Counted from the first letter of the stretch, positions 4,691 to 48,983 are shown. The stretch is DNA of 64,000 nucleotides from an uncultured Dehalococcoidales bacterium (GCA_964554375.1 CAZKOL010000003.1:7206-71205); one strand, 5' to 3'. Translations and numbers: made by a program. The notes: generated from the letters alone by a model not told the origin.

Positions 4691-4954
4691 ATGATCACTC
4701 ACCGGGGAACACTTATTTTGACGCAACACGTGACCCACAAAACTAACATTATGGCTGGTACCAAAAAGGGGAGGTCCTCACACACTTGTACTACTGATTG
4801 GGAATCCCCTGCATTTGATCTAAATCATTATTTGCTGCAACGATGCGCCTTTTAACGGGATATCCAATTCCTTTGAGACTATCGAGCCTCACCCATCGGA
4901 AGTAGTATTGGTATTGTAGTCAGCAGTTTTGAAATACCGCGTATTTGAGATAAA

Positions 4955-6808: not shown

Positions 6809-6832
6809 TATTGCAGCAATCCAAAGTGGTAA

Positions 6833-7534: not shown

Positions 7535-7563
7535 CTCCCTTTCCTCTGTTTATAGTTATTTTT

Positions 7564-7818
7564 TCAGGCAGAATAGCGGGCTAATCTCGGATCTTTAAAG
7601 CGAAGAGCAAACAGCCTTGGCTTATCCCCGAGGCTAAATATCAGCTCTTTTTGCTGTAGATTATAAAGCACGCTGTGTATCTTAGAAAACGGAATATCGC
7701 ACAGAGCGCTGATAACCTTGGCGGTAGATTCGCCCTCCTGATTTAAGAATCTGAAGACTTTTATTTCATCTTCACTTAAATTGAGCAACTCAGGGTATCT
7801 GTCAATAAAAGCACTCAT
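7564..7818 (-). CDS. small winged-helix DNA-binding protein
   Basis: 84 aa from the ATG that has a GGGAGGG RBS. HTH-like segment STAKVISALCDIPFSKIHSVLYNLQQKEL. Sits between the two KaiC-like genes. Confidence 0.4.
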   Translation of the reverse strand: MSAFIDRYPELLNLSEDEIKVFRFLNQEGESTAKVISALCDIPFSKIHSVLYNLQQKELIFSLGDKPRLFALRFKDPRLARYSA

Positions 7819-7870
7819 AGTGTACTGCCCTCCCATTCCTTTCGCTCACGATGGAAAATAAAATCATTCA

Positions 7871-8986: not shown

Positions 8987-9094
8987 GCGGTTCTCCGCCA
9001 AACAAACCCGGCTAGATAATTAGCCTTGATCTTACTTATTATTCTATATCCATTTCCTTCATTGCAGACTACATGATAGTTCATAATAGATAAT

Positions 9095-10777: not shown

Positions 10778-10802
10778 TGCTTACAAACCCTGATTACAGC
10801 AG

Positions 10803-12041: not shown

Positions 12042-12102
12042 GTGCTATTCTCTCACCTGTAACAGCAATTTAAATTGACGTTAAAATAGAAATACTCCCT
12101 CT

Positions 12103-13779
12103 CTATTCAACGTTACAAGTTCTCTCCTGAAATACAGATTCGTTTTTCATTTCCAGACGGAACCATAGAAAACCATATGGGCTTAGAGTCAACAAGTAGG
12201 GCAATTCTCCGATACGGGGGAAGCGTACTTCACCTAACAATTCAACAGGGATTGCTCCCTTGTATCTCTTCAGGTCCAGCTCCACCGGCTGAGAAGAATT
12301 TGCCAGGTTTTGCACGACGAGAATATTATCATCCTGGTAACTGCGGATGTATGCTAATACACAACTGTTTCTTGGTTTTAGAAACTCTAAAGTGCCACGG
12401 CCGAAAGCCCGGTGCTTCTTACGCACCGCAATCAATCTCTTCATACTATTGAGTAATGAACTGGGTGTACGCATTTGTGCCTCAACGTTAATGGTCTGAT
12501 AACCGTAGACCGGATTACTAATAACAGGCAGGTAGAGTTGCTCCGGATCTATCTCAGAGAATCCCCCATTCCGATCGACACTCCATTGCATGGGAGTTCG
12601 TACACCATTACGATCACCCAGATAAATGTTGTCACCCATTCCAATCTCATCTCCATAGTAGATAATTGGACTACCGGGCATTGTAAGCAGAATGCTGTTC
12701 AACAGTTCCACCTTTCGCCGGTCATTGTCTACCAATGGCGCAAGCCTGCGGCGTATCCCCAGATTCAATCGCATTCTAGAATCAGCCGCGTACGTTTGCC
12801 ACATAAAAGCGCGCTGCAATTCCGTGACCATTTCAAGGGTCACTTCATCATGATTACGCAGAAAGAGCCCCCACTGGCTAGTATCGGGGATCTCAGGAGT
12901 GCGGCTTATTACATTGACAATAGGTTGACGATTTTCTCTTGCCAGCGCCATAAAAATATTGGGCATGAGGGGAAAATGAAATGCCATATGAAATTCATCA
13001 CCATCTCCAAAATACTGACGAACGTCCCCGGGCAATTGGTTTGCCTCGGCCAGCAGCAGTCTATCCTGGTAATTTTCGTCTATTTTGCGGCGCAGTTCCT
13101 TGAAATATACATGATTTTCAGGAAGATTTTCACAGTCAGTGCCTTCTTGCTCAAATAGGTATGGAACAGCATCGCAACGCAGCCCGTCCATGCCCTTATC
13201 AAGCCAGAAAAAAGCTACCTTCAACATTTCCTCCTGCACCTGAGGATTATTATAGTTAAGGTCCGGCTGGTGGCTAAAGAAACGATGCCAGTAATACTTA
13301 TTTAAACCGGTATCTAATGCCCAATTAGATTTCTCCGTGTCAAGAAAAATAATGCGCGCATCCTTGTATTTGTCCTGATTATCACTCCACACATAGTAAT
13401 CATGTTTAGGATTATCGGGAGATCTGCGAGCTTCCTGAAACCACCGGTGCTGGTCCGAGGTATGGTTAACAACAAGGTCGGCAATAACCCGTATCCCCAG
13501 TAGATGCGCCTTATTAAGGAACGCCTGGAAGTCTTCAATGCTCCCGTAGTCCGGATGGATGTCATTAAAATCGGAAATATCGTAGCCATCATCCTTCAAA
13601 GGAGAGGGATAAAATGGCAGCAGCCAGATGCAGTCGATCCCCAACTCCTTGAGATAGTCCAGCTTTTCCGTTAAACCCCGAAAATCTCCTTTGCCATCGT
13701 TATTGGCGTCATAAAAAGCGCGTACATGCACCTCATAGAAAATTGCGTCCTTATACCATAGCCTATCCGAATCTTGCAT
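12103..13779 (-). CDS. treS: trehalose synthase / maltose alpha-D-glucosyltransferase (GH13)
   Basis: [29 protein letters not shown] and [15 protein letters not shown] are hallmark TreS motifs; length 558 aa. Confidence 0.85.
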
Positions 13780-13908
13780 ACTATCCCTTATACACGTTAA
13801 TTTTCAGCGATTCCTGAATCTCTCTAACCATTGCTTCTCTATAATCCAGGACGTTTACCTCTCGCTACATAAATATATTTCGCCTGACTTATCCTCTCTA
13901 ATAGTATT

Positions 13909-15906
13909 CTACATAAAATAATCAAAATCTCTCTCCGTGTGAATACGCCGCCGGATAAGGAATATATGGGCAGGACAAACAAACGGATTCAGTTCGATAT
14001 AATTGCGCCGGCCACTCCACAGGAAGCGGGAGTCGCTTAAAAGATCGTGCATCTGATACGGTTGCTCTGAATCAAAATTCAATAACTCGGGAGAGAGTTC
14101 TACCCATCCAGAGTGAGTATGATGCGGATCGAGGTTCACTATTACCAGCAATGTGTTGGACAGGTCATCAGTTGATTTGCTATAACAAATCAACTGGTCA
14201 TTATCAACTTCATGGAAAAGCAGATTCAAGTTGCTCTGAAGAGCAGCATTATCTCTCCGGATCTTATTCATTAGCGAAATAAAGTCGCGCAGGCTATCCT
14301 GTAGCCCTGTATTCCAGTGTTTTATCTCATATTTCTCAGAGTTAAGGTATTCTTCACTGCCCTGCTCTTTGGGGCTATTTTCACAAAGCTCGAAAGCAGG
14401 GCCATAGATTCCGTAACTAGCGCCCAGAGTAGCTGCCAGTACCAACCGCGACATAAAGGCTGGCCGCCCGCCGGATTGAAGATATTCCGTCAGAATATCC
14501 GGGGTATTAGGCCACAGGTTCGGACGAAAATACTCTCGGACTTCCGTTTTAGTAAGCTCATTTAAATATTGTGTTAATTCCCACTTTGTATTGCGCCAGG
14601 TAAAATAAGTGTAAGATTGCGTAAAGCCCAATTTAGCGAGATTGTACATTACCTTGGGACGAGTAAATGCTTCAGCCAGGAAGATAACATCAGGATAAGC
14701 CTCTTTTATTTCGGAAATCAACCATTCCCAAAAGCCGAAGGGCTTGGTGTGAGGATTGTCAATTCTGAATATGTGAATTCCCTGTTCAATCCAATAGACC
14801 ACAATGCTTTTTAACTCATCCCACAATTCACTCCAGTGCTCGGTATTGAAATTTAGAGGATAAATATCCTGATATTTTTTTGGTGGATTCTCAGCAAATT
14901 GCACCTTTCCATCCGCGCGCAACAGAAACCATTCAGGGTGCTGGGTCACATAGGGATGATCAGGCGAGCATTGGAAAGCTATGTCCATGGCAATTTCAAT
15001 GCCATAATTATTGGACTTTTGCACTAGATTATGAAAGTCTTCGGTAGTGCCCAACTCAGGAAGGATTTCTTTATGCCCGCCTTCCTGCGAACCTATTGCC
15101 CAGGGAGTTCCAGGGTCATCAGGATTGGCTGTAACGGTATTATTTTTCCCTTTGCGATCGGTTTGGCCAATAGGATGTATAGGAGGAAAATAGAGAACGT
15201 CAAAGCCCATTTCCGCAATATAGGGAAGCCAGTCTTCACAATCCTTGAACGTGCCATGGCGCAATTCCTGCGTGGCAGCCGAGCGGGGAAACATTTCATA
15301 CCATGTGCTGAAGCGGGCCTTCTCCCTATCAACTGAGACCGCCAATTCCTTAGGATAAGTGACGGCAAATCTTCTATCAGATAACTTGTCCATCGCTTCA
15401 GCGACATTTTCAGCAAGTATCAACTTCATCTTGTCTTTCTGCGATACCTGCTCCGATTGAAGCGCCTTTAGCCACTTGCCTATCAACCTTTTATCACCGT
15501 TAGCAGCTCTCAGGGATGCTTCTTCAATAAGCCGGGTACCTGCTATTAAATGAATTGCAGTATCTTCTTCACCTGCATTAAGCCTTTTCTCAAAGTTATC
15601 GCGCCAGGATTTAAAGCTATCAACCCAGGCTGTAACCGTGTAAAAGTAGTTTCCCAGCTCCGTTACTATAAATGACGCCCTCCACCGGTCATTGATAACA
15701 CGTTCCATGGGTATCTCACGCCACCGAGAATCAAGCGCTTGCCTATACGATAGTAAAGCAGTGAGTACATCGTGGCCATCAGCATAAATATCCGCCTCTA
15801 CTACCACCGTCTCACCTATAATTCGTTTAACTGGGAAACGTCCATCATTTATCGCAGGCTTCACAAGGTCTATAACTACTCGTGATCTACTATCTGTCTT
15901 TTTCAC
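13909..15906 (-). CDS. glgE: alpha-1,4-glucan:maltose-1-phosphate maltosyltransferase
   Basis: 665 aa. The N-terminus VVIDLVKPAINDGRFPVKRIIGE and GH13-like core match GlgE. Confidence 0.8.
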   Translation of the reverse strand: MKKTDSRSRVVIDLVKPAINDGRFPVKRIIGETVVVEADIYADGHDVLTALLSYRQALDSRWREIPMERVINDRWRASFIVTELGNYFYTVTAWVDSFKSWRDNFEKRLNAGEEDTAIHLIAGTRLIEEASLRAANGDKRLIGKWLKALQSEQVSQKDKMKLILAENVAEAMDKLSDRRFAVTYPKELAVSVDREKARFSTWYEMFPRSAATQELRHGTFKDCEDWLPYIAEMGFDVLYFPPIHPIGQTDRKGKNNTVTANPDDPGTPWAIGSQEGGHKEILPELGTTEDFHNLVQKSNNYGIEIAMDIAFQCSPDHPYVTQHPEWFLLRADGKVQFAENPPKKYQDIYPLNFNTEHWSELWDELKSIVVYWIEQGIHIFRIDNPHTKPFGFWEWLISEIKEAYPDVIFLAEAFTRPKVMYNLAKLGFTQSYTYFTWRNTKWELTQYLNELTKTEVREYFRPNLWPNTPDILTEYLQSGGRPAFMSRLVLAATLGASYGIYGPAFELCENSPKEQGSEEYLNSEKYEIKHWNTGLQDSLRDFISLMNKIRRDNAALQSNLNLLFHEVDNDQLICYSKSTDDLSNTLLVIVNLDPHHTHSGWVELSPELLNFDSEQPYQMHDLLSDSRFLWSGRRNYIELNPFVCPAHIFLIRRRIHTERDFDYFM

Positions 15907-15982
15907 TATAACTCACCTCGCTTTCACAGACAGCCAATGATAAGGCATTGCCATCAGTTTACTATAAACGCTTGCCATAAGA

Positions 15983-16012
15983 ACAATTTAGCATTGCGTT
16001 ATTTGACTAGCT
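15983..16012 (+). promoter_or_regulatory. candidate sigma70-type promoter for malQ-glgB
   Basis: TTGACT, a 17-18 nt spacer, then TAAGAT, in the 270-bp divergent intergenic region between glgE and malQ. Confidence 0.25.
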
Positions 16013-16178
16013 GCTCGGTGAAACGGTAAGATAGCAAATCAGACAGTAACCTTACCACCATTTGTTACCGCGTTCAAAATAATGCAACGTAAGAAGCATA
16101 ACCACGAGAGATATAAGTCCAATAAACAATTGGCCTGACAATAAAACTTCATCTGCCCTGGGGGAGTATATACATTTT

Positions 16179-18320
16179 ATGGACGCTCCGGAGAAGCAAG
16201 TGAATAGCTCCATTAAGTCGCTTTATGAACTTGCTCACCTGTACGGTATCCAGGTTGCCTATAATGACGTCGAACACCACCGCAGACAAGCTTCCGTCGA
16301 AACACTGTTAGCAACACTGCGATCTTTGGAGGCTCCTGTTGTGTCACTTGATGACATTCCTTCGGTTATCAGCGAAAAGAGGCAAGCGCTCTGGCAAAAC
16401 TACATTGAGCCTGTGCTGGTAGCCTGGGACGGGAACATGTCCCCTATCAACATACGTTTACCACAGAGGATGTCTGACAAACCTTTTAAAATTACTATCA
16501 CCCTGGAAAATGGAGACCGAGCCTGCTGGCATTGCCAGATTAACGATGTTTTACCCAGGATAAAGAAAGTAGACGTGAATGGAACCACGTATGTTATCAA
16601 GCTTTTTAAAATACCTGTCAAATTACCCTCAGGATATCACCAGCTCACGATAGAATTAGATAACATGGTAGTGCAGGCATTTATCATTTCAGCACCCCGG
16701 AAGACTTACTCTGATACAAACATGCTGAACAGTAAATGCTGGGGAGCATTCGTTCCACTTTATGCTCTGCATACCAGGGAGAGTTGGGGTGGAGGCAACT
16801 TCTCAGACATGGAGACCATGACGACGTGGGTCAGCGAAATGGGCGGCAAAGTTGTTGCTACCCTGCCACTGCTTTCTACCTTTTTCGAGAATACTTGCGA
16901 CGTCGGCCCCTATTCTCCCGCCAGCCGCCTATTCTGGAATGAAGTCTACATAGACATAAAAAAAATTGCAGAACTGGGAAGCTGCGATGCGGCAACAATG
17001 ATACTTGCGTCTGATACTTTCTGTAATAACCTGGACCTCATGCGGAAAGCATCCCATGTAGACTATCGCCTGCAAATTGATGTGAAGCGCCGAATACTGG
17101 AGCAACTGTCACGATATTGTTTTACGGAAAGCCCAGCCCAGAGGGAAAAATGTCTGAACTTCGTGATGATGAATCCAATGGTAGAAGACTATGCTAAATT
17201 CCGTGCCACCTGTGAAAAACGCCAGGAGCGCTGGCATTCATGGCCTTCCCCTCAAAAAGATGGAATGCTTTACCAGGAAGACTATAACGAAGAGATAAAA
17301 CAATATCATATATATGTACAATGGTTAGCCAGCGAACAACTCAAGGCAATCTCAAAAACAGCCAGTGAAAAAGATGTGAAATTATACTTTGACCTGCCGC
17401 TGGGAGTACATCCCGATAGCTATGATGTCTGGCGTGAAAAAGATGCCTTTTTGCCTGGAGTTTCGGCAGGAGCGCCTCCTGATACTTTCTTCACGAGGGG
17501 ACAGCAATGGGGTCTTACTCCTTTGAGCCCTGAGGGTATCAGAAAGCAGGGGTACAGATATTATATAAATTGCCTGCGAAACATTCTTAAATACTCGAGT
17601 ATCCTGAGGATCGACCACGTAATGGCTTATCACCGCCTTTACGTCATTCCAAATGGTTTTGATGCCCGTAATGGCGTTTATATGCGTTACCATCCATCGG
17701 AGTTCTACGCTATCGCGAGCCTTGAATCACATCGCAACAAGGCTATACTCCTGGGCGAGGACCTGGGCACAGTACCAGCAGAGGTCAGAAGAGCAATGGA
17801 GCAACATGATTTATACCGGCACTATGTCATTCAGTATGAAATCAGCCCCACTGAAGGAAAGCCATTCACTGCTGTACCGGAAAAAGTAGTAGCAAGTATT
17901 AATACCCATGATATGGCTACCTTCGCAGGCTTCTGGCAGGACGATGATATAAAACAGCGCTTTGAGCTTGGATTACTGGACAGCGATGGTGCAAAACAGG
18001 AACGCAGTGAACGCCAGCATATCAGGAAGATAGTCATTAAATTCCTCAAGCAGGAAAAGTTAATTAACTCATCGCAACCCGGCATCAGGGATATACTCAA
18101 AGGTATATTAAGCTTTCTCAGTTCAAGCCCGGCACGGATGGTTCTTATCAATGTTGAGGATCTCTGGTTGGAGATGAAACCTCAGAATATACCTGGCACG
18201 GTGGAGGAGTATCGCAATTATTGTAAAAAGTTATATTATCCATTTGAGGAATTCTCAAAGTCGCATGAAGTGTTGGAAATATTAAGTGAAGTCAATCAAA
18301 GACGCAGAGGAGAGAAATGA
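16179..18320 (+). CDS. malQ: 4-alpha-glucanotransferase (amylomaltase, GH77) with N-terminal extension
   Basis: The GH77 core (DLPLGVHPDSYDVW, QQWGLTPLSP, LRIDHVMAYHRLYVIP) is preceded by an N-domain of about 170 aa. Confidence 0.8.
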   Translation: MDAPEKQVNSSIKSLYELAHLYGIQVAYNDVEHHRRQASVETLLATLRSLEAPVVSLDDIPSVISEKRQALWQNYIEPVLVAWDGNMSPINIRLPQRMSDKPFKITITLENGDRACWHCQINDVLPRIKKVDVNGTTYVIKLFKIPVKLPSGYHQLTIELDNMVVQAFIISAPRKTYSDTNMLNSKCWGAFVPLYALHTRESWGGGNFSDMETMTTWVSEMGGKVVATLPLLSTFFENTCDVGPYSPASRLFWNEVYIDIKKIAELGSCDAATMILASDTFCNNLDLMRKASHVDYRLQIDVKRRILEQLSRYCFTESPAQREKCLNFVMMNPMVEDYAKFRATCEKRQERWHSWPSPQKDGMLYQEDYNEEIKQYHIYVQWLASEQLKAISKTASEKDVKLYFDLPLGVHPDSYDVWREKDAFLPGVSAGAPPDTFFTRGQQWGLTPLSPEGIRKQGYRYYINCLRNILKYSSILRIDHVMAYHRLYVIPNGFDARNGVYMRYHPSEFYAIASLESHRNKAILLGEDLGTVPAEVRRAMEQHDLYRHYVIQYEISPTEGKPFTAVPEKVVASINTHDMATFAGFWQDDDIKQRFELGLLDSDGAKQERSERQHIRKIVIKFLKQEKLINSSQPGIRDILKGILSFLSSSPARMVLINVEDLWLEMKPQNIPGTVEEYRNYCKKLYYPFEEFSKSHEVLEILSEVNQRRRGEK

Positions 18321-20290
18321 TGAAAGAACCAGAGAAAAAAGCCTCAGGCGGGTCACGGCCAAAAACAAAACCTGACAAAGTACAAAGCGACCTGAAAATA
18401 TTATCTGCGGATGACCTGTATCTCTTCAATGAAGGCAGTCACCTGAAACTATATGAGAAACTGGGAGCACATCCCATGGTCATTGACAGTGTCGAAGGGA
18501 CTTCCTTTGCTGTTTGGGCGCCCGATGCTAAACAAGTATCTGTGACGGGTGATTTTAATGGCTGGAATATGAGTAGCCACCCGCTGTATCAGCAAGAACA
18601 ATCCGGAATATGGCAGAGTTTTGTCCCGGGAATAACCAAAGGTAGTCTTTACAAGTACCATATAATCTCAAGACACAAGAATTACAAGGTTGATAAAGCA
18701 GACCCTTTTTCTTTATATAATGAAATCCCTCCCAAAACAGCTTCAATTGTATGGAATTTGGATTATGAATGGGGAGATCAGTCATGGATGCAAAACCGTT
18801 ATAAGAACAACTCATTAAATGGACCGATAACTATATATGAAGTGCATTTCGGCTCATGGATGAGGGTTTCAGATGAGGAAAACCGCTCATTATCCTATAG
18901 AGAAATGGCAGTAAAACTTGCTGACTACGTGACAAAGCTGGGTTTCACCCATGTGGAATTTTTGCCGCTCATGGACCATCCATTCTTTGGGTCATGGGGC
19001 TACCAGGTTACAGGTTATTTTGCCCCCAGCGCTTGTTATGGCGCCCCCCAGGACTTCATGTATCTTATCGACTATCTCCACCAGAGGGGCATTGGGATTA
19101 TTCTTGATTGGGTCCCATCCCATTTCCCTACTGACGAGCACGGGCTGGGTTTCTTTGATGGCACACATCTCTACGAACACAGCGATCCGAAAAAGGGATT
19201 TCACCCTGACTGGAAAAGTTACATCTTTAACTACGGCCGGCACGAAGTCAGAAGCTTCCTTCTCAGCAGTGCGCTTTTCTGGCTGGACAAATACCATCTC
19301 GACGGATTGCGCGTTGACGGCGTAGCTTCCATGTTGTACCTGGATTACTCCAGGAAGGAAGGTGAATGGATTCCCAACCAATACGGCGGCCGGGAAAATA
19401 TAGAGGCAACCTCATTGCTGCGGAGGCTTAATGAGGAAGTCTATAAGAACTATCCCGATGTGCAGACTATTGCCGAGGAATCCACTGCATGGCCCATGGT
19501 TTCCCGCCCAACATACCTTGGAGGATTGGGATTCGGCATGAAATGGGATATGGGCTGGATGCATGATATGCTCGAATATATAGCCAAGGACCCTGTTCAC
19601 AGGAAATTTCATTACAATAAATTAACATTCCGTATGCTTTATGCGTTTACGGAGAACTTTGTGCTTTCACTTTCACATGACGAGGTTGTGCACGGCAAAG
19701 GCTCTCTGCTGGGGAGAATGCCCGGAGATGACTGGCAAAAATTTGCCAACCTGAGGCTCCTGTTTAGCTACATGTATTCCCAGCCGGGAAAGAAACTGCT
19801 GTTTATGGGAGGGGAGTTCGGACAGTGGAGCGAATGGCACCATGACGCCAGCCTGGAATGGGATCTTTCGCAGTATGCTACTCATATGGGGGTGCAGCGA
19901 GCAGTCCAGGACCTGATAACCCTGTACCGCGGTGAACCAGCCCTCCATGAGTTGGATTTTGATGCCGCCGGGTTTGAATGGGTCGACTGTAACGATTCCG
20001 ACAACAGTGTCATTTCATTTTTGCGCAAAGGACGCTCTACCAAAGATGTTGTTTTAATCATTTGTAACTTCACGCCTGTAGTGCGCTATAACTATCGTAT
20101 CGGTGTGCAAAACGGTGGGTTCTGGAAAGAAATCTTCAACAGCGATGCTTCGCACTATAATGGGAGCGGACAGGGCAATATGGGTGGAGTTACCGCCGCT
20201 CCGCTGAAATTTCATGGCAGACCGTTCTCCCTGAATCTCACGCTACCACCGCTCGCCGCAGTTTTCTTCAAGAAGGAAGAACAGAAATAA
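18317..20290 (+). CDS. glgB: 1,4-alpha-glucan branching enzyme
   Basis: VWAPDAKQVSVTGDFNGWN, GIILDWVPSHFP and HDEVVHGKGSL. The start overlaps the malQ stop. Confidence 0.9.
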   Translation: MMKEPEKKASGGSRPKTKPDKVQSDLKILSADDLYLFNEGSHLKLYEKLGAHPMVIDSVEGTSFAVWAPDAKQVSVTGDFNGWNMSSHPLYQQEQSGIWQSFVPGITKGSLYKYHIISRHKNYKVDKADPFSLYNEIPPKTASIVWNLDYEWGDQSWMQNRYKNNSLNGPITIYEVHFGSWMRVSDEENRSLSYREMAVKLADYVTKLGFTHVEFLPLMDHPFFGSWGYQVTGYFAPSACYGAPQDFMYLIDYLHQRGIGIILDWVPSHFPTDEHGLGFFDGTHLYEHSDPKKGFHPDWKSYIFNYGRHEVRSFLLSSALFWLDKYHLDGLRVDGVASMLYLDYSRKEGEWIPNQYGGRENIEATSLLRRLNEEVYKNYPDVQTIAEESTAWPMVSRPTYLGGLGFGMKWDMGWMHDMLEYIAKDPVHRKFHYNKLTFRMLYAFTENFVLSLSHDEVVHGKGSLLGRMPGDDWQKFANLRLLFSYMYSQPGKKLLFMGGEFGQWSEWHHDASLEWDLSQYATHMGVQRAVQDLITLYRGEPALHELDFDAAGFEWVDCNDSDNSVISFLRKGRSTKDVVLIICNFTPVVRYNYRIGVQNGGFWKEIFNSDASHYNGSGQGNMGGVTAAPLKFHGRPFSLNLTLPPLAAVFFKKEEQK

Positions 20291-20753
20291 TGCGGGGAAC
20301 GTCACTAAAAACAATAATAACCGCACGGACAATGGTTTAGTGTGGCTATTTTATGGTTATTTTTTAGCTATACGACCACGCAGATATCCCATTGAACGTC
20401 ATTTCATGTGTAGGTCTGTTTCTTAAACGATAAACCTTCTATAAATCATGATTACGCCCAATACGAAAGCCAGGAAAAGACCGGCAATGCTGACATACAA
20501 AATTGTTGAATTATCAGATACTATAAAACTTCCAGCGGATATACTATTTACAGTGACCGGATTCTAAGACCGAGTGCTGCTAAATACGGGGTAAGGTCAA
20601 GCGCAATCTCACATTCAATTATTGTAACTACATTCCGCACGGGCAGATCGAATAATATATGCGCTACCTAATACTCTTTTCACCATTTTCATAGCTAAAA
20701 TGGTATTATTCATACAGGAATGGTAATTATAGATCTGGTTGAAGGAGGTTACA

Positions 20754-23843: not shown

Positions 23844-23922
23844 GACGGGCCTGTAGGGGCGTACCTTCAGGTGCGCCCGAGAGGCCACAAGAGCGGACAG
23901 GCCTGAAGGCCCGTCCCTACAG
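23844..23922. repeat. REP-like palindromic intergenic repeat (modules X and Y)
   Basis: GTAGGGGCGTACCTTCAGGTGCGCCCG plus GCGGACAGGCCTGAAGGCCCGTCCCTAC. The same modules recur at 27.5/30.15, 32.25, 36.69 and 42.07 kb. Confidence 0.6.
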
Positions 23923-23936
23923 AAAGGAGGAGTGAT

Positions 23937-24545: not shown

Positions 24546-24575
24546 TATCCGGCTACCAGGGCCAATTCAATAGTC

Positions 24576-26564
24576 TCAGCCGCGCAGCTTTAAATACATC
24601 TGCTCGAGGTCTTCCAGCCACAGTGCGGGTTCAGCATCCGATGGCATCCTCCAGTCGCCCCGAGGGGACAGGCTCACGGAGCCGATCTTCGGTCCCTCGG
24701 GCAGGCAGGTCCGCTTGAACTGGTTGGCGAAAAAGCGCCTGATGAAATTTACCAGCCACCTGTTGAGGTCTTCCGGCGTATAGCGGCCGTCGAAAAGCTT
24801 CTGCTTTCTGGCCTCATTGGCTAAAAATAGTATCTTGCCCGGGCGCGTACCGAAGCGGACAAATGGATAAAGATAGAAATCGGCCAGCTCTACCGGGCCG
24901 ATGACGTCCTCGCTCCTCTGCGCAATCTGTCCCTTAACAGGCCGTCTCAGCTCGGGGGAGATGGGTGTATCCAGCACGTCCCTCAGTATTTTCTGCGCGG
25001 GCGACCCCGCCAGCTCCTCGTCGGCCACCCAGCGGATGAGATAGCGCACCAGAGTCTTGGGCACAGAAACGTTGATGTCGTAATGCGACATATGGTCGCC
25101 CGAGAAGGTGCTCCAGCCCAGGGCCACCTCGGTCAGGTCACCCGTACCCAGCAGTATGGCGTTCAGCCCGTTGGCCCTGTTGAAAAGGAACTCGGTGCGG
25201 TAGCGCGCCTGTATATTTTCGAAGACCACGTCCTCACGGCCGTCATGCCCGAGATCATCCATGTGCGCTTTGCACGTCTTTGTGATATCAACGCGCTCGA
25301 AGCTCACGCCCAGGGCTTTACATAATTCAGTAGCGTTGTCCCTCGTCCTGCGCGTGGTGCCGAAGCCGGGTAGTGTGCATGCAGTAACGTTTTTCACGGG
25401 CAGTTTAAGATAATCCATGGTCCTGACTGCCACCAGAAGGGCCAGTGTGGAATCAAGCCCGCCGGAGACGCCCAGCACGATGCGGCTAATGTGGGCCCCG
25501 GAGAGCTTTTTGGCCAGGGCGGCCACCTGCATGGAAAACATATCGCGGCACCTTTGCGCGCGCTTATCGGTATCCCCGGGGACAAAAGGATGAGGGTCGA
25601 TCGTCCTCACGAGGCTGTTGGCTGGGATATCGGTCACGGCTGCCTCTATGATGCGGAAGGGTTTTATGTGACCGGGCGACTGGCGGAAGCTGGTCAGCGA
25701 CACACGGTCGTGTACCAGGCGGTCGACGTCGATATCGGAAATGGTCAGGCCAGTATTACGCTCGAAAATGTGCGATTCGGCCAGCAGGCTGCCGTTCTCG
25801 GCGATCAGTGTGTGTCCGCCGAAGACGACATCGTTGGACGATTCGCCCATGCCGGTAGATACATAGCAGCAGGCTGCGGCGCATCTGCCCGACTCAGAGG
25901 TGACCATGGACCGGCGCCACTCCGCTTTGGCCAGGACTTCGTTGCTGGCGGAGATGTTGAGCAGCACTGTCGCCCCGGCGAGGGACTGGTATTCATGTGG
26001 GGCCAGCGGCACCCACATATCCTCGCAGATCTCCACGCCTATCATGGCCGATGGAAATCCCCGCAACGAGATAAGGACATTGGCGCCGAATGCAACGACC
26101 CTGTCTCTAATATGGACTATATCGGAGCAGGCATCCTCAGAGGAAACAAACCACCGGTTCTCGTAGAACTCCTTGTAAGACGGTAAGTATGTTTTAGGTA
26201 TGACAGCCAGAACCTGCCCACCGTTCAGCACTGCCGCACAGTTAAAGATCTTTTGGTCTATGCAGATGGGCAGGCCGGCCACTATCAACATGCCGCCGTC
26301 TGCGCTGCGCTCAGCCAGCCGCATCAGACCTTCTTCAGCCTTTGCCAGCAAGGATTGCTGCTGAACCAGGTCAGCTATGGTGTAGCCCGTGATCGACATC
26401 TCGGGGAAGGCCAGCACCTGCACGCCCTTTGACCTGGCCTGTTTGACCATGTCCAGCATGGCGTCGACATTGAAATCGACGTCGGCCACCCTCAGTTCGG
26501 GGACAGCCGCGGCTATCCTCAGAAATCCCAGGTCTCTGTTCAAAAATATCTTTTGTACCGCCAT
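24576..26564 (-). CDS. nadE: glutamine-dependent NAD+ synthetase
   Basis: N-terminal CN-hydrolase domain plus an NAD synthase domain with a PP-loop (GVSGGLDSTL). Confidence 0.85.
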   Translation of the reverse strand: MAVQKIFLNRDLGFLRIAAAVPELRVADVDFNVDAMLDMVKQARSKGVQVLAFPEMSITGYTIADLVQQQSLLAKAEEGLMRLAERSADGGMLIVAGLPICIDQKIFNCAAVLNGGQVLAVIPKTYLPSYKEFYENRWFVSSEDACSDIVHIRDRVVAFGANVLISLRGFPSAMIGVEICEDMWVPLAPHEYQSLAGATVLLNISASNEVLAKAEWRRSMVTSESGRCAAACCYVSTGMGESSNDVVFGGHTLIAENGSLLAESHIFERNTGLTISDIDVDRLVHDRVSLTSFRQSPGHIKPFRIIEAAVTDIPANSLVRTIDPHPFVPGDTDKRAQRCRDMFSMQVAALAKKLSGAHISRIVLGVSGGLDSTLALLVAVRTMDYLKLPVKNVTACTLPGFGTTRRTRDNATELCKALGVSFERVDITKTCKAHMDDLGHDGREDVVFENIQARYRTEFLFNRANGLNAILLGTGDLTEVALGWSTFSGDHMSHYDINVSVPKTLVRYLIRWVADEELAGSPAQKILRDVLDTPISPELRRPVKGQIAQRSEDVIGPVELADFYLYPFVRFGTRPGKILFLANEARKQKLFDGRYTPEDLNRWLVNFIRRFFANQFKRTCLPEGPKIGSVSLSPRGDWRMPSDAEPALWLEDLEQMYLKLRG

Positions 26565-26722
26565 ACTTCACCCCTGAAAAGTCAGCCCAGTTTTAAGACA
26601 ACTGAAAGGCCTTTTCCCTCTGAATAGTGCAGTGCCCCCGGGCTTTGGCTATAATAAACCGTCGCCCGGATAAAATCAAAACCGGCCATAACATATTTTA
26701 AGGTTTTCCCGGAGAAATTCAT

Positions 26723-27469
26723 ATGTTCAAACTAGTTTTACTGCGCCACGGCGAGAGCGCCTGGAACAGGGAGAACAGGTTCACAGGGTGGACCGATGTG
26801 GACCTTTCGGAAAAAGGCATGCTGGAGGCCAGACAGGCCGGGGCTATACTGAAGAAGGAAGGATATACCTTTGACCTGGCGTTCACCTCCGTTTTGAAGC
26901 GCGCCATACGTACGTTGTGGATAGTGCAGGACGAGATGGACCTGATGTGGATACCGGTTAAGAAATCGTGGCGCCTGAACGAGAAACATTACGGGGCTTT
27001 GCAGGGGCTGAACAAGTCCGAAACGGCTAAAAAATTCGGCGAGGATCAGGTGCTGGTCTGGCGCAGGAGCTACGATGTACCGCCTCCGCCGCTGGAAAAG
27101 GGCGATCCTCGCAGCCCGGCTGGCGAGCCGTGCTACCGGGAGCTCAAGCCGGGACAGGTACCGCTCTCGGAGAGCCTCAAGGACACCTACCGGAGGTGTT
27201 TGCCCTACTGGCACAGGTCCATCGCCCCGGCGGTAAAGTCCGGTAAAAAAGTAATAGTCTCGGCCCACGGCAACAGCCTGCGGGCGCTGGTCAAGTACCT
27301 GGACAATGTGCCGGACAGCGACATCGTCGCACTCAACATCCCCACCGGCATACCGCTGGTCTACGAACTGGACGGCAACCTCAAGAGAACCAGCAGCCGC
27401 TACCTGGCGAGCGAGCAGGAGCTCGAGCAGGCCATGAAAGCAGTGGCCGACCAGGGCAAAGCTAAATAG
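26723..27469 (+). CDS. gpmA: 2,3-bisphosphoglycerate-dependent phosphoglycerate mutase
   Basis: [29 protein letters not shown] and the RSYDVPPP motif. Confidence 0.9.
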
Positions 27470-27691
27470 CGCAGGGGTAGGCCGCTATGCAAACATGTAG
27501 GGACAGGCCTTCAGGGGTTCTGTTATAACCCTATTGATAGGCGAATTATAGCATGGGTTCTATACTCGCTTCTATTCTTTGATTTCATCGCATTCGTACT
27601 ACTAAATATTAGTCTTGGGTTTAGTGATCCTTACGTAGAAAGGAAAATATGCTATATAGCGTTAATCATATTGATTTCGCTACTGCTTATA

Positions 27692-27925
27692 TTATTTTAC
27701 GAATATAAGCACCCCAGCAACAAGAACGGCTCCAACAAACAATGCGGCGATCATAAGAATAAACTTGCCTTGCATGTCTATCCCAAAATCAAGTGTAGAA
27801 GTCTGAGTGTCTTTAGAAAGATTTTCAGATGGGGCATTACTGGTACTGCTCAACAAAAACCAGCAAATTGCCACGACTACAATCGTGATGATAATAATAG
27901 CGATCAATTTACTCATAATCCACAC
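27692..27925 (-). CDS. small hydrophobic membrane protein (passenger ORF)
   Basis: 77 aa with two predicted TM helices, inside the AT-rich element. No recognisable family. Confidence 0.25.
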   Translation of the reverse strand: MWIMSKLIAIIIITIVVVAICWFLLSSTSNAPSENLSKDTQTSTLDFGIDMQGKFILMIAALFVGAVLVAGVLIFVK

Positions 27926-28176
27926 ATACCTCCAAAGGCCGAAAAGTAATGACTATTACATCAATCTTATCAATTGCATCTTACTCAAATAAAATAGGAG
28001 GAAAACAAAATGGCAAAAAATATCAGGACAGAATTAATGACAACCCTAATCAACAGGACAAGCAAGGCTCCTGTCAAAACTCAGCGTAGTTTCATGATGA
28101 AGCATTGGAATGATCCAGTAGCCAAGCTTGAAAAGATGGTTAAAGAAGTCAAAGTCATAAACAAGCGCATTGTGCT

Positions 28177-28515
28177 TTAGAGCAATCCACTGGACTTCAA
28201 ATATGGATATGCCTTGATGTATATAGGTAGTTTTTTATATTTGCGCACATGGCTAAGGACAGCCTTTACTTCCATTTGCTTTGGATCATCGAAATTTCCA
28301 GCTAATGTGCATAAGAAGTATTTGCCCTTTGGACATCTTCTATTGCGAAGATGGGCAAGCAATCGTCCTTTTATGCTTGTCCGTGCGCTTGTACTGCTGC
28401 CTATATACACAGGCACTCTATTGATATCGCCTATCATGTATATTCCGACAAGGCCATCTTTAAGAACTGAGATATTATCACGTGTAAATTCGTACCACCT
28501 ATTTTCTACTGGCAT
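28177..28515 (-). CDS. GIY-YIG-like nuclease domain protein (passenger ORF)
   Basis: GIYMIGD...VYIGSSTS...R..H spacing resembles the GIY-YIG motif; 112 aa. Confidence 0.4.
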   Translation of the reverse strand: MPVENRWYEFTRDNISVLKDGLVGIYMIGDINRVPVYIGSSTSARTSIKGRLLAHLRNRRCPKGKYFLCTLAGNFDDPKQMEVKAVLSHVRKYKKLPIYIKAYPYLKSSGLL

Positions 28516-28630
28516 AAACCACCTCCTCTTTGATTATCTTACACGGGCAGATCATTTATTTCAATCGGTAATTTACAAAAATGTATCTATAACTATTGTG
28601 TGAGTACGTAATGCTTAATAGAATTGAAAG

Positions 28631-29695
28631 GTGCAATACATCGTGGAAGAAGTAACTTGTAAATACTGTAACTCAAACAACATCGTAAAAGATGGCACTA
28701 ATATTGGTGAACAGTATTACCTTTGCCGTTCATGCAATAAACGATTTAACCTCAAAGATGCATTGGTACATATGAAAACCCCTGTAAGTGCCGTATCTGC
28801 TGCTGTTTCTATGTATTACAGAGGAATGTCGATTAGTAATATTCGGGACGAATTGAAACAGCTATATAATCTAGATGTATCTGATTTTGCAGTCTATAAC
28901 TGGATTGAACGGTTTACCAAAGATGCTATAAAGATAACAGGGAACTATCATCCTGATACTGGTTACGTTTGGCTTGCAGATGAAACAGTTATTGATGTAG
29001 CAGGCAAACAGTACTGGCTGATCGATGTAATTGACCTCAAAACCCGCTTTCTTTTGGCCTCTAGGCTATCAGCGCATCGTTATATGGATGATATAAGGGA
29101 AACATTCAAAGAAGCTTACAATCGGGCTGGAAAGATGCCAAAAGTCATAATGACAGACCACCTGGTTGGATATGTACGTGCTATCCCATCAGTATTTGGC
29201 ACTAATACAAAACACTTACAGGTTGAAAAGCTCACATCGAAGCCAAACAATAACATTATTGAACGCTTGCATGGTACGATTAAATCACGCACAAAGATAA
29301 TGCGAGACCTGAAAAGTCCTGAGACAGCGGAATTAATACTCGATGGTTTCTTTGTGCATTATAACTTCATAAGACCGCATGAAACGCTATCAAAATCTGG
29401 CGATGATATAACACCTGCTATGAAAGCTAACATCAAGTTTCCTTATGAGAATTGGGAGCAATTGATACGGAATAGCCAAGTTGCTAAAGCGGAACCACCA
29501 CCTGCAAGATTTGATGTCCCTCATCTACCTGTTTATCCAATCAGTGAGAGAGAAAGGAAACAGGAATATGAGCGGATACGTAAACAAGAAAGAAGAAGGC
29601 AGTTAAAACTCGGTATGCCGCCTCTACGCAAACGCGGCCCAGCTAAACCAAAGAATATACAAGTAGCTATTCAGGCAGTAAGGACGGATAAATAA
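28631..29695 (+). CDS. IS6-family transposase with N-terminal zinc ribbon
   Basis: CKYCNS...CRSCN zinc finger. DDE-region blocks WLADETVIDVAGKQYWLIDVID, IMTDHLVGY and NNNIIERLHGTIKSR match the IS6 catalytic core (DETY...D, TD..Y, NNRIE..H..IK.R). Basic C-terminal tail. Confidence 0.75.
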   Translation: MQYIVEEVTCKYCNSNNIVKDGTNIGEQYYLCRSCNKRFNLKDALVHMKTPVSAVSAAVSMYYRGMSISNIRDELKQLYNLDVSDFAVYNWIERFTKDAIKITGNYHPDTGYVWLADETVIDVAGKQYWLIDVIDLKTRFLLASRLSAHRYMDDIRETFKEAYNRAGKMPKVIMTDHLVGYVRAIPSVFGTNTKHLQVEKLTSKPNNNIIERLHGTIKSRTKIMRDLKSPETAELILDGFFVHYNFIRPHETLSKSGDDITPAMKANIKFPYENWEQLIRNSQVAKAEPPPARFDVPHLPVYPISERERKQEYERIRKQERRRQLKLGMPPLRKRGPAKPKNIQVAIQAVRTDK

Positions 29696-29868
29696 GCACA
29701 ATGTTCTATTATGTCTTAAATACCGTTTTGAATAGTGGGCTTACACAACATCAAAAGGATGCGATTTTAAGTTACATTTTACTACTGGCTATTGTTATGT
29801 GTTTGGAAAGCGTAGCTTTATTTATAACATTGGTGACAGTTGTGAAATTGAGAAGATCAGCCAAGAAG

Positions 29869-30081
29869 TTACAGGCTTGTAAAAAATGATGCAATTTCTT
29901 CCCATAGTAAAATCAAACCCACAGCGTTGAGTAAAATTATGAATACTATTACATATCCAGTCGGGTCAAGCACTGACATCTGTAATAGAAGTAGGTTTAG
30001 TACCCATCCTACTAAGATATCAACAGCAATAACCACTACCAGAGATATTAACCCAAGAATGATTTTTATGATGTTATCCAT
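29869..30081 (-). CDS. small hydrophobic ORF (passenger, uncertain)
   Basis: 70 aa, entirely hydrophobic, inside the element. Could be non-coding. Confidence 0.15.
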   Translation of the reverse strand: MDNIIKIILGLISLVVVIAVDILVGWVLNLLLLQMSVLDPTGYVIVFIILLNAVGLILLWEEIASFFTSL

Positions 30082-30147
30082 CGATGTTAGTATAGGAGGG
30101 TGACAATATGAACGTCAATAGAGTTATAACAGAACCCCTTCAGGCCT

Positions 30148-30197
30148 GTCCGCGATGCGGGCGCAGATGAAGCAACGCCCCTACGGCTTAACTATCC
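30148..30197. repeat. REP-like repeat, right half of a copy split by the IS6-type insertion
   Basis: CCTTCAGGCCTGTCCGC plus CGGGCGCAGATGAAGCAACGCCCCTAC. The left half, GTAGGGACAGGCCTTCAGG, ends at 27515. Confidence 0.6.
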
Positions 30198-30205
30198 GCC
30201 TGCCC

Positions 30206-30946
30206 TTATTCTTCAGACGGGGATATGTCAGTGCGGTAGCTGTGCTTGATGGCGTCGGCGCGGGCCTCCGCGGATATGCTCTCCTCCCGGTATATGAGGC
30301 CGTCCTTGAGCCAGATGACCCGATCGCTGTATTCCCTCTGCTCAGGCTCATGCGTAACCATGAGTATGGTTTGCCCCAGTTCATCGCAGAGTTTGCGCAT
30401 CAGCCGCAGGACTATGCCCTTATTCTCCGTATCAAGGTTGGCGCAGGGTTCATCGGCGAACAGTATCTTGGAGCGGTTGACCAGGGCACGGGCGATGGCG
30501 ACGCGCTGCTGCTCGCCGCCGGAAAGCTGGCTGATCAGGTGATGAAGGCGCTCACCCAGCCCCACCTTCACCATGAGGTCCCCGGCTATCTTCATGTAGT
30601 CCTTCTTGCGCAGGCCCAGCAACAGGAGCGGCAGGTAAGCGTTTTCCAGCGCGTTCAATTCAGGTATCAGGGCATATTCCTGGAATACGTAGCCCAGGTT
30701 TTTCAGGCGGAACTCGGTCTTCTGCCAGTCGGACAGGCGCGATATATCATTGCCTTCCAGCAAGATATCTCCCGAAGTCGGCGTGTCCAGCAGCGCCAGC
30801 TGGTGCAGCAGCGTGGATTTGCCCGATCCGCTGGGGCCCATGATCGAGACGAACTGCCCGGGTGATACCTCGAAGCTCACACCTTTCAAGGCATGTACCG
30901 GCACGTGCCCCGCGTAGGTCTTTTTGAGGTTGCTGACCTTGATCAT
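30206..30946 (-). CDS. ABC transporter ATP-binding protein (MacB/LolD-like)
   Basis: Walker A GPSGSGKST, signature LSGGEQQR and Walker B ILFADEP. Confidence 0.85.
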   Translation of the reverse strand: MIKVSNLKKTYAGHVPVHALKGVSFEVSPGQFVSIMGPSGSGKSTLLHQLALLDTPTSGDILLEGNDISRLSDWQKTEFRLKNLGYVFQEYALIPELNALENAYLPLLLLGLRKKDYMKIAGDLMVKVGLGERLHHLISQLSGGEQQRVAIARALVNRSKILFADEPCANLDTENKGIVLRLMRKLCDELGQTILMVTHEPEQREYSDRVIWLKDGLIYREESISAEARADAIKHSYRTDISPSEE

Positions 30947-30953
30947 GACTTGA

Positions 30954-32192
30954 TCATCCCCATATGGCCCTGATAATATTTTCTCGCGCCACCCTCCACG
31001 AAGGGATGAAGCCCGCCAGTATGCTGACCACCAGCATGCTCACCACACTGGTCATGAACTCACCCGGCATGATGGCCAGGCTGACCTTGCCCATTGGGAA
31101 GTCGAGGGGATGGGCGATGAAGTACGGCTTAATGAACATCTCGATAACGGCAATGCCCAGACCTATGCCAACCAGGGCGTAAAAAAGTGCCAGGAAGATG
31201 TAGGACAGGATGATTATGCGCTCGTGCATGCCGATGGCCTTCATAATGCCGATTTGCCTCCGCCTGCTGACTGTGGCTATAAAGATCACGATGAATATGG
31301 TCACCCCGGTCACTATCAGGCCGATCAGTAGAATGATCCTCTTGATGATGTCGAAGCTCTGAGCGATACCCAGCACCAGGCCGATGAAGTCCTCCCAGGG
31401 CTTGATATCCTCCATCTCTATGCCGGCCTGCCGCAGCCTCTGGATATAATACGACTCGGGGTAGGCTTCGTCGGTCTTGACCAGTATCTCCGATGCCCGG
31501 TCGTGGATGCCCAGCACCGACTCCATCTCTTTCTGCGTGACAAAGATGGACATGTCAGAGAGAGGAAATACGGTGGAATAGATACCCTTGATGGTATAGT
31601 CGCGCACTATCCCATTGTGGTAGTACACCGTGATCTCGTCTCCTACTACTGCCCCTTTGAGCGACTGCACCTCAAGGGCCGCCCCGAAGCCGCCGGATAT
31701 CTCCCTGCCCATGATGACCTGGTCGCGGTCCGAGTCGCTCAGATATTCACCGGAGACCATGTACCTTGAGATGTTGGATACTTCGATATTTTCTTCAGGG
31801 CTGATGGATGTTATCGGCCAGCTCACGGACCTAATGTCTTTGCCTGTTTTATCAGGGTCATAGGTTACGATAGCCCCGGTCGAGTACCTCGAGCTGCACC
31901 CGATGATACCGGGTACGGTGTTTATCTTGCGCTTGAGCGAAGATACCTGCGTCAGGTACTGCTCGCTGTTGCCCGACTGGTCCTTGCCCGGCTTGATGAC
32001 TATGTTGGAAACATAGTTTGTCTTGGCCTGCTGGTAGATGAGGCTGACGGCCCCGCTCATTATGCCGGAGATGATATTGATCTGCATGAAGGCCACGGCC
32101 GCCACCAGGATGGTGAGCATGAGCGTGCCTATGCTGCCGCGCGTGATATACTTGTAAAAGAGGAAAACGGCCGCCCTTAAATCGTTCCACAT
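30954..32192 (-). CDS. ABC transporter permease, FtsX/MacB-like
   Basis: N-terminal TM, a large extracytoplasmic domain and a C-terminal FtsX 3-TM bundle. Start moved to the ATG at MWNDL because the longer ORF-track N-terminus runs through a REP copy. Confidence 0.7.
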   Translation of the reverse strand: MWNDLRAAVFLFYKYITRGSIGTLMLTILVAAVAFMQINIISGIMSGAVSLIYQQAKTNYVSNIVIKPGKDQSGNSEQYLTQVSSLKRKINTVPGIIGCSSRYSTGAIVTYDPDKTGKDIRSVSWPITSISPEENIEVSNISRYMVSGEYLSDSDRDQVIMGREISGGFGAALEVQSLKGAVVGDEITVYYHNGIVRDYTIKGIYSTVFPLSDMSIFVTQKEMESVLGIHDRASEILVKTDEAYPESYYIQRLRQAGIEMEDIKPWEDFIGLVLGIAQSFDIIKRIILLIGLIVTGVTIFIVIFIATVSRRRQIGIMKAIGMHERIIILSYIFLALFYALVGIGLGIAVIEMFIKPYFIAHPLDFPMGKVSLAIMPGEFMTSVVSMLVVSILAGFIPSWRVARENIIRAIWG

Positions 32193-32245
32193 CTTAAGAC
32201 TCGTACACCCTTCAAGCGCCTTTATTATACTATGCTGAAAAATGT

Positions 32246-32306
32246 TGGGACGGGCCTTCAGGCCTGACCGCGTATCGGGCGCAGCTAAAGCAACGCCCCT
32301 ACGTCC
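32246..32306. repeat. REP-like palindromic intergenic repeat
   Basis: GGGACGGGCCTTCAGGCCTGACCGCG plus CGGGCGCAGCTAAAGCAACGCCCCTAC. Confidence 0.6.
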
Positions 32307-32382
32307 ATTAATTATATTATACGTTGGCCCTTCAAGTCTGATATCATATTTAGCGCCCAAATTTCATTTAAAGAAGAGTGAC

Positions 32383-48927: not shown

Positions 48928-48945
48928 TTAAAACGGAGAATAAAA

Positions 48946-48983
48946 AGAGGGGCTCGAAATCGATTTCGAGCCCCTCTTTTTTT
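48946..48983. terminator. bidirectional rho-independent terminator between pilT and pilA
   Basis: Perfect 15-bp inverted repeat GAGGGGCTCGAAATC/GATTTCGAGCCCCTC, flanked by AAAAA on one side and TTTTTTT on the other. Confidence 0.6.

Follow-up and report, generated by a model that had tools for sequence, protein, structure and literature searches.

The element and its insertion site

In the 64,000-nucleotide stretch of an uncultured Dehalococcoidales bacterium analysed here (GCA_964554375.1 CAZKOL010000003.1:7206-71205; hereafter the window), a mobile element of 2,621 bp lies between gpmA and a convergent gene for an ABC-transporter ATPase, on a Chloroflexota (Dehalococcoidia-like) chromosome. 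We are confident in regarding it as an intact insertion sequence (IS) of the zinc-finger branch of the IS6 family that carries passenger genes (a 'tIS'), and this applies to its identity, boundaries, family and recent insertion. Its features and those of its target, a unit resembling repetitive extragenic palindromes (REP), are as follows (L numbers denote the other loci compared).

27516-30136, plus strand: whole transposable element, 2,621 bp, G+C content (GC) 0.38, delimited by the empty site L074 and the identical copy L004:1498-4118
27508-27515, no strand: left copy of the 8-bp target duplication CCTTCAGG, single in the empty site (L074:2946-2953)
30137-30144, no strand: right copy of the 8-bp target duplication CCTTCAGG, from the empty-site alignment
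27516-27537, plus strand: left terminal inverted repeat GGTTCTGTTATAACCCTATTGA, whose first 14 nt fit the IS6/IS26 consensus GGTTCTGTTGCAAA at 11 of 14 positions
30115-30136, minus strand: right terminal inverted repeat (reverse complement GGTTCTGTTATAACTCTATTGA)
27497-27507, no strand: left half of the interrupted hairpin (GTAG GGACAGG)
30145-30195, no strand: right half of the hairpin (CCTGTCC) and second hairpin of the ~65-nt REP-like unit (GGGCG...CGCCCCTAC)
27692-27925, minus strand: small protein of 77 (or 74) aa with two hydrophobic helices; weak sub-threshold family matches
28010-28180, plus strand: basic protein of 56 aa, its gene convergent with the GIY-YIG gene and overlapping the 3' end of the latter by 4 bp
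28177-28515, minus strand: stand-alone GIY-YIG domain (DUF7508-type) of 112 aa, its gene divergent from the transposase gene
28631-29695, plus strand: transposase of 354 aa (start GTG 28631) or 350 aa (start GTG 28643), with an N-terminal CxxC...CxxC zinc ribbon, an IS6-type helix-turn-helix (HTH) plus a DDE core
29701-29889, plus strand: small membrane protein of 62 aa, 77% identical in L008; ratio of nonsynonymous to synonymous substitution rates (dN/dS) 0.09
29869-30081, minus strand: small membrane protein of 70 aa, its open reading frame (ORF) convergent with and overlapping the 62-aa ORF; 84% identical in L008, present in L016; dN/dS 0.19

The public metagenome contigs were searched for exact matches to the site rejoined in silico, and one contig, L074, was found. 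It represents the same chromosomal locus without the element and aligns at 99.7% to window positions 24561-27515 and at 99.9% to positions 30137-32208, the two blocks overlapping by exactly 8 bp. As this empty site carries one CCTTCAGG and the whole palindrome GGACAGGCCTTCAGGCCTGTCC, the boundaries, the 8-bp duplication and the host origin of the palindrome are proven. The target was thus cut with a stagger of 8 bp, and the direct duplication proposed in the sequence-only reading is present on both sides of the element.

That reading had placed the right copy of a 14-bp inverted repeat at 30134-30147 and the right end of the element at 30147. Both copies of the repeat are indeed present, and the left end at 27516 and the size of ~2.6 kb stand, but the right copy lies at 30123-30136 and the right end had been set 11 bp too far. 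The duplication's second copy occupies 30137-30144, and the right half-stem of the host palindrome (CCTGTCC) occupies 30145-30151; therefore, the element ends at 30136. The repeats, described as perfect, are so over 14 bp, the full repeat being 22 bp long with one mismatch. It begins with GGTTCTGTT and its outermost bases are perfectly complementary. The 14-mer GGTTCTGTTATAAC (27516-27529) has its sole other occurrence in the 64 kb, at up to two mismatches, in inverted orientation at 30123-30136; the chance expectation for such matches is 0.22, and two matches were obtained in 0 of 100 shuffles. The claimed likeness to the IS6/IS26 end consensus GGTTCTGTTGCAAA (PMC6807381) is confirmed, the ends keeping the consensus G1, G2 and G7 with A replacing G10. 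The interior is AT-rich as described, with a GC of 0.36-0.41 against 0.55-0.60 in the immediate flanks.

An inward-facing promoter-like TTGACG-18-TATACT inside the right repeat is a mere consensus match, and a promoter and terminator scan gave no more sites than in shuffled sequences. The Rfam search over the element and the hairpin returned no family, and no guide RNA was evident.

The transposase and its family

The sequence-only reading had predicted an IS6-like DDE transposase with a zinc ribbon, and the family models agree. The protein matched Pfam DDE_Tnp_IS240 (5e-20) and NCBIfam NF033587, transpos_IS6, at 138.1 bits (cutoff 125) over model positions 4-202 of 202. Its first 40 residues contain CKYC...CRSC and scored above the cutoffs of the IS1/IS1595-type zinc-domain model (IS1_IS1595_Zn, 34.3 > 28 bits) and of IS256_N_4Cys (34.7 > 27 bits). 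When 31 relatives were aligned, the four cysteines, D113, D172, E207 and K214/R216 were invariant or nearly so. The 350-aa form is on record (P0001); the 354-aa form was not found by exact look-up. The closest annotated genes in 72,556 plasmids were Clostridium ISCpe7-family IS6 transposases, with 31-34% identity over residues 44-259.

Such transposases are placed in clade h of Varani et al. 2021 (PMC7986276) and clade VII of Harmer & Hall 2019 (PMC6807381), described as elements of 1.2-1.35 kb with one gene (PMC7986276, PMC6807381). The simple IS6 organisation of about 700-900 bp and one gene does not describe the element studied here, which has six ORFs, at least four of them supported as genes. 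The length of ~0.8 kb with which it had been compared is true of the IS26 type, but the proper yardstick is the zinc-finger branch, which measures 1.2-1.8 kb in ISfinder (PMC7986276) and 1.4-3.9 kb in Dehalococcoidia.

The ISCpe7/ISCbo1/ISTps1/ISNth1 group shares with the element a transposase of 340-353 aa, an N-terminal CxxC zinc finger before an IS6-type HTH-DDE core and an 8-bp duplication. The group differs in its core (~34% identity), its length of 1,226-1,349 bp with one gene, its origin from Clostridia and the rarity of a GG start (PMC6807381), whereas the element here has 2,621 bp, six genes, a Chloroflexota origin and perfect GGTTCTGTT ends. ISDsp3 of Dehalococcoides sp. BAV1, compared by description, is the sole IS6-family entry recorded with a passenger gene (PMC7986276). 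It has the 8-bp duplication, and its bacterial class is that of most relatives found for our element, but it is 1,456 bp long and encodes one hypothetical passenger and a 319-aa transposase that lacks an intact zinc finger (PMC6807381). IS26, IS257 and ISS1 resemble the element in the DDE core with a trailing K/R, the 8-bp duplication, the end consensus and the non-matching flanks expected from cointegrates and inter-copy recombination. Unlike it, they are ~0.8 kb long and have one gene and no zinc finger; their mechanism was tested experimentally, whereas for the element here it would hold by analogy. No hairpin targeting is reported for them in the IS6 review (PMC7986276).

The IS6 membership of the long zinc-finger ISs is disputed between Harmer & Hall 2019 (PMC6807381) and Varani et al. 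2021 (PMC7986276). In the long clostridial elements the ends do not resemble those of IS26 and the outermost bases are rarely complementary, which Harmer & Hall used against family membership (PMC6807381). The zinc-finger transposase, the near-consensus IS6 ends and the clean 8-bp duplications together argue for one family. Within the family, the element probably belongs to a separate, Chloroflexota-centred clade.

Relatives in Dehalococcoidia

A scan of one genome per species gave 68 related loci, nearly all in metagenome-assembled genomes (MAGs) of Dehalococcoidia/Chloroflexota. A neighbour protein with ≥90% identity points to Chloroflexota for the host of the window, too. To locate the element ends, a script matched GGTT-type ends in pairs on the two sides of every transposase gene. 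Nineteen relatives have perfect 8-bp duplications and GGTT-type ends (mostly GGTTCT) and span 1,366-3,942 bp, so that the pattern of ends and duplication read from the window is reproduced elsewhere; the identical copy in L004 also has the same ends. The relatives' elements are all AT-rich (GC 0.33-0.55), and their ends match GGTTCTGTTGCAAA at up to 12 of 14 positions (L063). Long gene-carrying elements are the rule in this clade.

Several relatives showed particular arrangements. In L010:2810-8077 (OY970123.1), two inverted related copies of 2.36 kb surround a 555-bp spacer built from ~120-bp units in tandem, and the outer flank on either side falls within a palindrome, CCCCTCTCCyGGGAGAGGGG; the pair could be a composite or could have arisen by inversion through intramolecular replicative transposition. 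In L020, L026, L033, L044 and L052, which form a more distant sub-clade, TGTCAAGTT(N4-5) stands directly outside the left duplication. The TGTCAA of this motif is the reverse complement of TTGACA, and the motif points either to a preferred target close to a -35-like box or to insertion in another repeated element. The DNA outside the left duplication in L038 (~4285-4302) and L067 (~2960-2980) ends in ...ACAGAACC, an IS6-type repeat terminus, so that 8 bp separate these elements from the terminus of a further IS copy. A second transposase gene, in inverted orientation, is present in L038 at 2783-3526. The archaeal and other distant members at L066:1023-1568 and L067:1712-2431 have an extra N-terminal SWIM-type zinc finger (CxCPDH...CKHIHAV) before the CxxC ribbon, and their transposase genes are split by frameshifts.

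The small membrane-protein genes

The small membrane ORFs mentioned in the sequence-only reading are present and number three. The 62-aa and 70-aa ORFs are real genes, conserved in L008 and under purifying selection by their dN/dS values; the dN/dS of the transposase is 0.11 for comparison. The 77-aa ORF is a probable third gene.

The GIY-YIG gene and its partner

The 112-aa ORF, taken before as GIY-YIG-like, has the motif GIY-x10-YIG and the conserved Arg and Glu on a beta-beta-alpha-beta-alpha core. Tyr26, Gly39, Arg51 and Glu82 are invariant, or nearly so, in its family. A profile of the family matched 143 clusters, mostly of 100-115-aa proteins, in 1.8 billion representative proteins; among 53 sampled members, 44 matched Pfam DUF7508 and 30 matched GIY-YIG (E < 0.01). 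It speaks against the assignment that the protein alone stays below the PF01541 threshold (14.7 < 22.6 bits). By its motifs and family matches, the ORF is a bare GIY-YIG catalytic domain with predicted nuclease activity.

The gene is divergent from an IS240-type transposase gene in the window, L008, L009, L010, L012, L023 and L028, and likewise in four further metagenome contexts (L075-L077 and L088). Two distant members lie near SWIM + DDE_Tnp_1 transposases, adjacent and divergent in L082 and ~2.3 kb away in L079. Homologues of the 56-aa ORF occupy the same convergent position in L010, L012, L028, L076, L077, L079 and L082. Meanwhile, a Cys-rich 48-aa ORF with a weak zf-C3Hc3H match stands at the partner position in L008, L009 and L075. 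The 56-aa ORF matched no Pfam family, the homologue search with it returned one near-identical protein, and its AlphaFold2 model is a helical hairpin of low confidence (predicted template modelling score, pTM, 0.29). No ORF of the element matched the defence-system models, and the comparison with phage protein families gave generic transposase matches only, those of the small ORFs being sub-threshold noise.

These comparisons identify the GIY-YIG gene and its partner as a conserved, exchangeable two-gene module that occurs almost only beside DDE transposases and is dispensable for transposition. The module is not needed for insertion, because L007, whose transposase is 73% identical, lacks it and still shows a fresh, perfect duplication.

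That the module is linked almost obligatorily to DDE transposases from two families points to some function in the element's life. We tentatively propose that it might serve the element itself, the two proteins forming a two-part nuclease whose substrates would be transposition intermediates or empty or donor sites; addiction or defence is an almost equally probable role. The partner in such a nuclease would possibly be a ~57-aa basic or zinc-binding protein. TnsA is the accessory nuclease of Tn7, and TnpB is that of IS200/IS605 and IS607. By analogy with TnsA, the module may cut the non-transferred strand and turn copy-in into cut-and-paste transposition; by analogy with TnpB, it may cleave empty sites and so drive homing. 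Resolution of cointegrates is another possible role.

Two observations weigh against such a role: L007 does without the module, and L009 and L010 have near-identical transposases with different module types, as ordinary cargo would. The GIY-YIG gene and its partner may accordingly be selfish or host-useful cargo acting outside transposition, such as an addiction pair, a restriction or defence nuclease or a homing-type cassette, and we regard this as a serious though somewhat doubtful alternative. It draws on the absence of the module from close relatives that still transpose, on its exchange between near-identical transposases and on the way in which the genes for a nuclease and a very small protein converge and overlap, which recalls addiction modules. 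Toxin-antitoxin pairs are, moreover, carried within the transposition module by transposons of the Tn3 family (PMC7157771). Cargo of this kind fits poorly with a DDE transposase at no more than 2.5 kb in 7/7 informative contexts sampled, usually immediately divergent and from two unrelated families. The contexts sampled included no case of the module away from a transposon, and known defence models and phage families gave no match.

The proposed two-part nuclease would resemble Tn7 TnsA, TnpB and the Tn3-family toxin-antitoxin pairs in adding to the element a second, non-transposase component, associated with more than one transposase family and dispensable for the insertion chemistry. TnsA and TnpB have restriction-enzyme-like or RuvC-like folds in contrast to the GIY-YIG fold here, where there is no evident guide RNA and where the function is predicted from sequence.

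Insertion at the centre of a REP-like hairpin

The sequence-only reading had the element inserted into a REP-like palindrome whose halves can be rejoined. Removal of the element regenerates GGACAGGCCTTCAGGCCTGTCC, which exists naturally in L074, and the unit is indeed repeated in the window, where two intact copies were detected in addition to the interrupted one.

23850-23925, minus strand: intact REP-like unit (nhmmer E 1e-18)
32238-32315, plus strand: intact REP-like unit (nhmmer E 9e-24)

The unit of ~65 nt reads GTAGGGACrGGCCTTCAGGCCTGwCC...GGGCGCA..TGAAG..ACGCCCCTAC and is present in three full and two partial copies in the window, about one per 13-20 kb. The same architecture with changed stems occurs in other Dehalococcoidia MAGs (L007, L016-L019). 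It should be noted that these counts rest on the 64-kb window and on loci of 5-11 kb. REP elements often exceed 100 copies per genome.

The target is the first hairpin of the unit, a palindrome of 22 bp with a 9-bp stem when folded, and the duplication is its central 8 bp, giving a geometry of 7-nt stem + 8 + 7-nt stem. The same 7+8+7 arrangement was seen in L007 (GGGCGGG TTTGAAAA CCCGCCC), in a REP unit of like architecture and changed stems, and in L019 (GGACAGA CCTTAAGG TCTGTCC). In L016, L017 and L018 the elements sit in the same REP type and in the same register, with the two flanks derived from different repeat variants; otherwise this REP is absent or single in these 8-11-kb loci. The complementary pairs about the duplication centre number 10 in the window, 10 in L007 and 11 in L019, out of 11, and at least 8 pairs were found in 0.1% of cases at random positions in the same loci. 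A different palindrome contains or adjoins the elements of L009 and L013, and the element of L012 lies in a T-tract after a hairpin.

As a two-fold symmetric cut at the hairpin centre recurs in the nearest relatives, we conclude that the transposase of this sub-clade prefers a symmetric or extrudable hairpin-centre target and that this preference is probably real. It does not extend to the whole family, since the more distant clade members do not lie in palindromes, which tells against a general targeting. It is improbable that the hairpin landings result from survival alone, with only insertions in harmless intergenic repeats persisting in a gene-dense genome. The location between two convergent genes, a place in which insertions are probably neutral, the small number of known cases (three to eight) and the position of the more distant relatives outside palindromes would fit such an origin. 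Selection for neutrality, however, would not produce the exact dyad in the window, L007 and L019 or the shared register in L016-L018. The hairpins are also rare (none or one other per 8-11-kb locus), and from the control frequency, 3 of 19 elements would have at least 10 of 11 pairs by chance at ~1e-6.

The preference for hairpin centres recalls the REP-targeting elements IS1397, ISKpn1, IS621, ISPpu9/10, ISPa11 and ISRm22, which insert in a fixed register inside repeated extragenic palindromes. Those, however, belong to the IS3, IS110, IS4, IS256 and IS5 families, and the REP here is a different, Chloroflexota-specific unit. REP targeting is documented for the same five families with no IS6 member listed (PMC1525189), and neither palindromes nor hairpins are mentioned in the IS6 review (PMC7986276).

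Two other long perfect palindromes were noticed in the window. The one at 57745-57777, GGACGGGGCGGAGAA-att-TTCTCCGCCCCGTCC, has a start resembling the REP stem, and that at 48942-48981, AAAAAGAGGGGCTCGAAAT-cg-ATTTCGAGCCCCTCTTTTT, is a bidirectional terminator-like hairpin with A/T tracts.

Copies of the element and its movement as one unit

A 100% identical copy of 2,621 bp with the same start and stop bases was found in L004 among unrelated small ORFs, and this second context was assembled independently twice (L004, L084). The identical transposase is encoded on about ten JGI contigs and a one-residue variant on 15 more; all these contexts except L004/L084 are the gpmA/ABC-transporter locus. 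A further copy and an empty site, of the kinds that the sequence-only reading had suggested looking for, were thus obtained from metagenomes, and no second copy was detected in the 64-kb window. Given the identical copies and the filled and empty alleles that both occur in metagenomes, the element has been active recently. The single copy in the window and the restriction of the exact element to two known contexts weigh on the other side.

All 2,621 bp travel together, as the identical copy in the second context and the lack of an internal repeat demonstrate. The element is thus a passenger-carrying IS, the first of two possibilities offered before, and not a decayed composite. The second possibility assumed a minimal IS of ~1.6 kb, made of the transposase and the right part, joined to captured DNA after loss of the inner repeat, and it is now very unlikely. 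The left 1.1 kb is a mosaic in that relatives share the transposase and the right end and differ on the left, and some relatives have merely 1.4-1.8 kb, as such an origin would allow. The degenerate internal repeat expected near 28.55 kb was nevertheless not found above chance: the best match to the terminal repeat within the element was 10 of 14, equal to shuffled sequences, and no 22-mer match with up to three mismatches exists inside it. The 1.6-kb core with a lost inner end was rejected on this ground. The copy in the second context moreover has the same two outer ends, which also match the empty site, and the GIY-YIG gene and its partner hold the same position in ten related elements.

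The arms 27501-27537 and 30115-30151 (37 nt, 92% complementary in a repeat search, with similar extended arms in several relatives) can be dismissed as the true inverted repeats, with palindrome halves and CCTTCAGG owned by the element and no target duplication, since the empty site L074 already has the whole palindrome with a single CCTTCAGG, the L004 copy ends exactly at GGTTCTG/CAGAACC without palindrome halves, and the duplications of the relatives are unrelated (e.g., GATTTTTG, CGCCTAGC).

The L004 copy lacks a target duplication, being flanked by GAATCAAA on the left and CCTAAAGA on the right. Its surroundings (L004:1-1497 and 4119-5081, and L084) form a run of small same-strand ORFs with a GC of 0.44-0.45 and an Arc/ribbon-helix-helix-like regulator (weak matches), and these flanks matched neither the window nor the phage collections. 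The replicon may be a plasmid, prophage or island, and may have been donor or recipient. The element itself had no match among phage records at the DNA level, and the viral contigs of IMG/VR held no close relative and one weak distant match.

Proposed transposition mechanism

The course of transposition can be proposed from IS26-type elements. The DDE transposase would bind the terminal repeats through its zinc ribbon and HTH. The 3' ends would then be nicked and joined to target phosphates staggered by 8 bp (PMC7986276). Replication across the element would fuse donor and target into a cointegrate, and recombination between the two copies would leave a simple insertion with a duplication. IS6 members form cointegrates and have no known element-encoded resolvase, and host recombination is thought to resolve them (PMC7986276).

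A cointegrate pathway with inter-copy recombination would account for the clean insertion seen here as well as for copies whose flanks do not match. The non-matching flanks in L004/L084 and L016-L018 and the two inverted copies in L010 fit cointegrates, and by analogy with IS6-type elements the mismatched flanks may be traces of that pathway or of inter-copy recombination. On the opposite side, the flank mismatches of L004 and L016-L018 may stem from chimeric joining across a 2.6-kb repeat during metagenome assembly, and copy-in is extrapolated from relatives that are ~25-34% identical, as the literature has no experiment on a long zinc-finger IS6-like element (PMC6807381).

Other features of the window

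Positions ~2000-20300 have a lower GC (0.41-0.46 against 0.52-0.59 elsewhere) and contain an alpha-glucan/trehalose cluster with genes for a GlgE-like maltosyltransferase, a TreT-like synthase, amylases, MalQ and a branching-enzyme-like protein. Also encoded there are two KaiC-family ATPases, of which one has a receiver domain fused to it, and a protein that joins a PAS histidine kinase to a mechanosensitive-channel domain.

Implications for the IS6 family

The relatives carry 0.4-2.9 kb of extra small genes across the clade, and the rule that an IS6 element has 0.8 kb and one gene fails outside clinical bacteria. The conserved GIY-YIG module and the dyad-centred insertion into REP-like hairpins were not previously described for the IS6 family. 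It is an attractive but rather unlikely idea that the Chloroflexota elements form an undescribed IS6-like subgroup combining REP-dyad homing with a dedicated two-part nuclease in the transposition cycle, the latter shared between unrelated DDE transposons. A structure-compatible nuclease borne by the element would be an obvious candidate for the cointegrate resolution step of IS6 elements. REP-dyad homing, if true, would be without precedent in the IS6 family, and the dyad-centred hairpin insertion would offer a simple system for the study of target choice by a DDE transposase.

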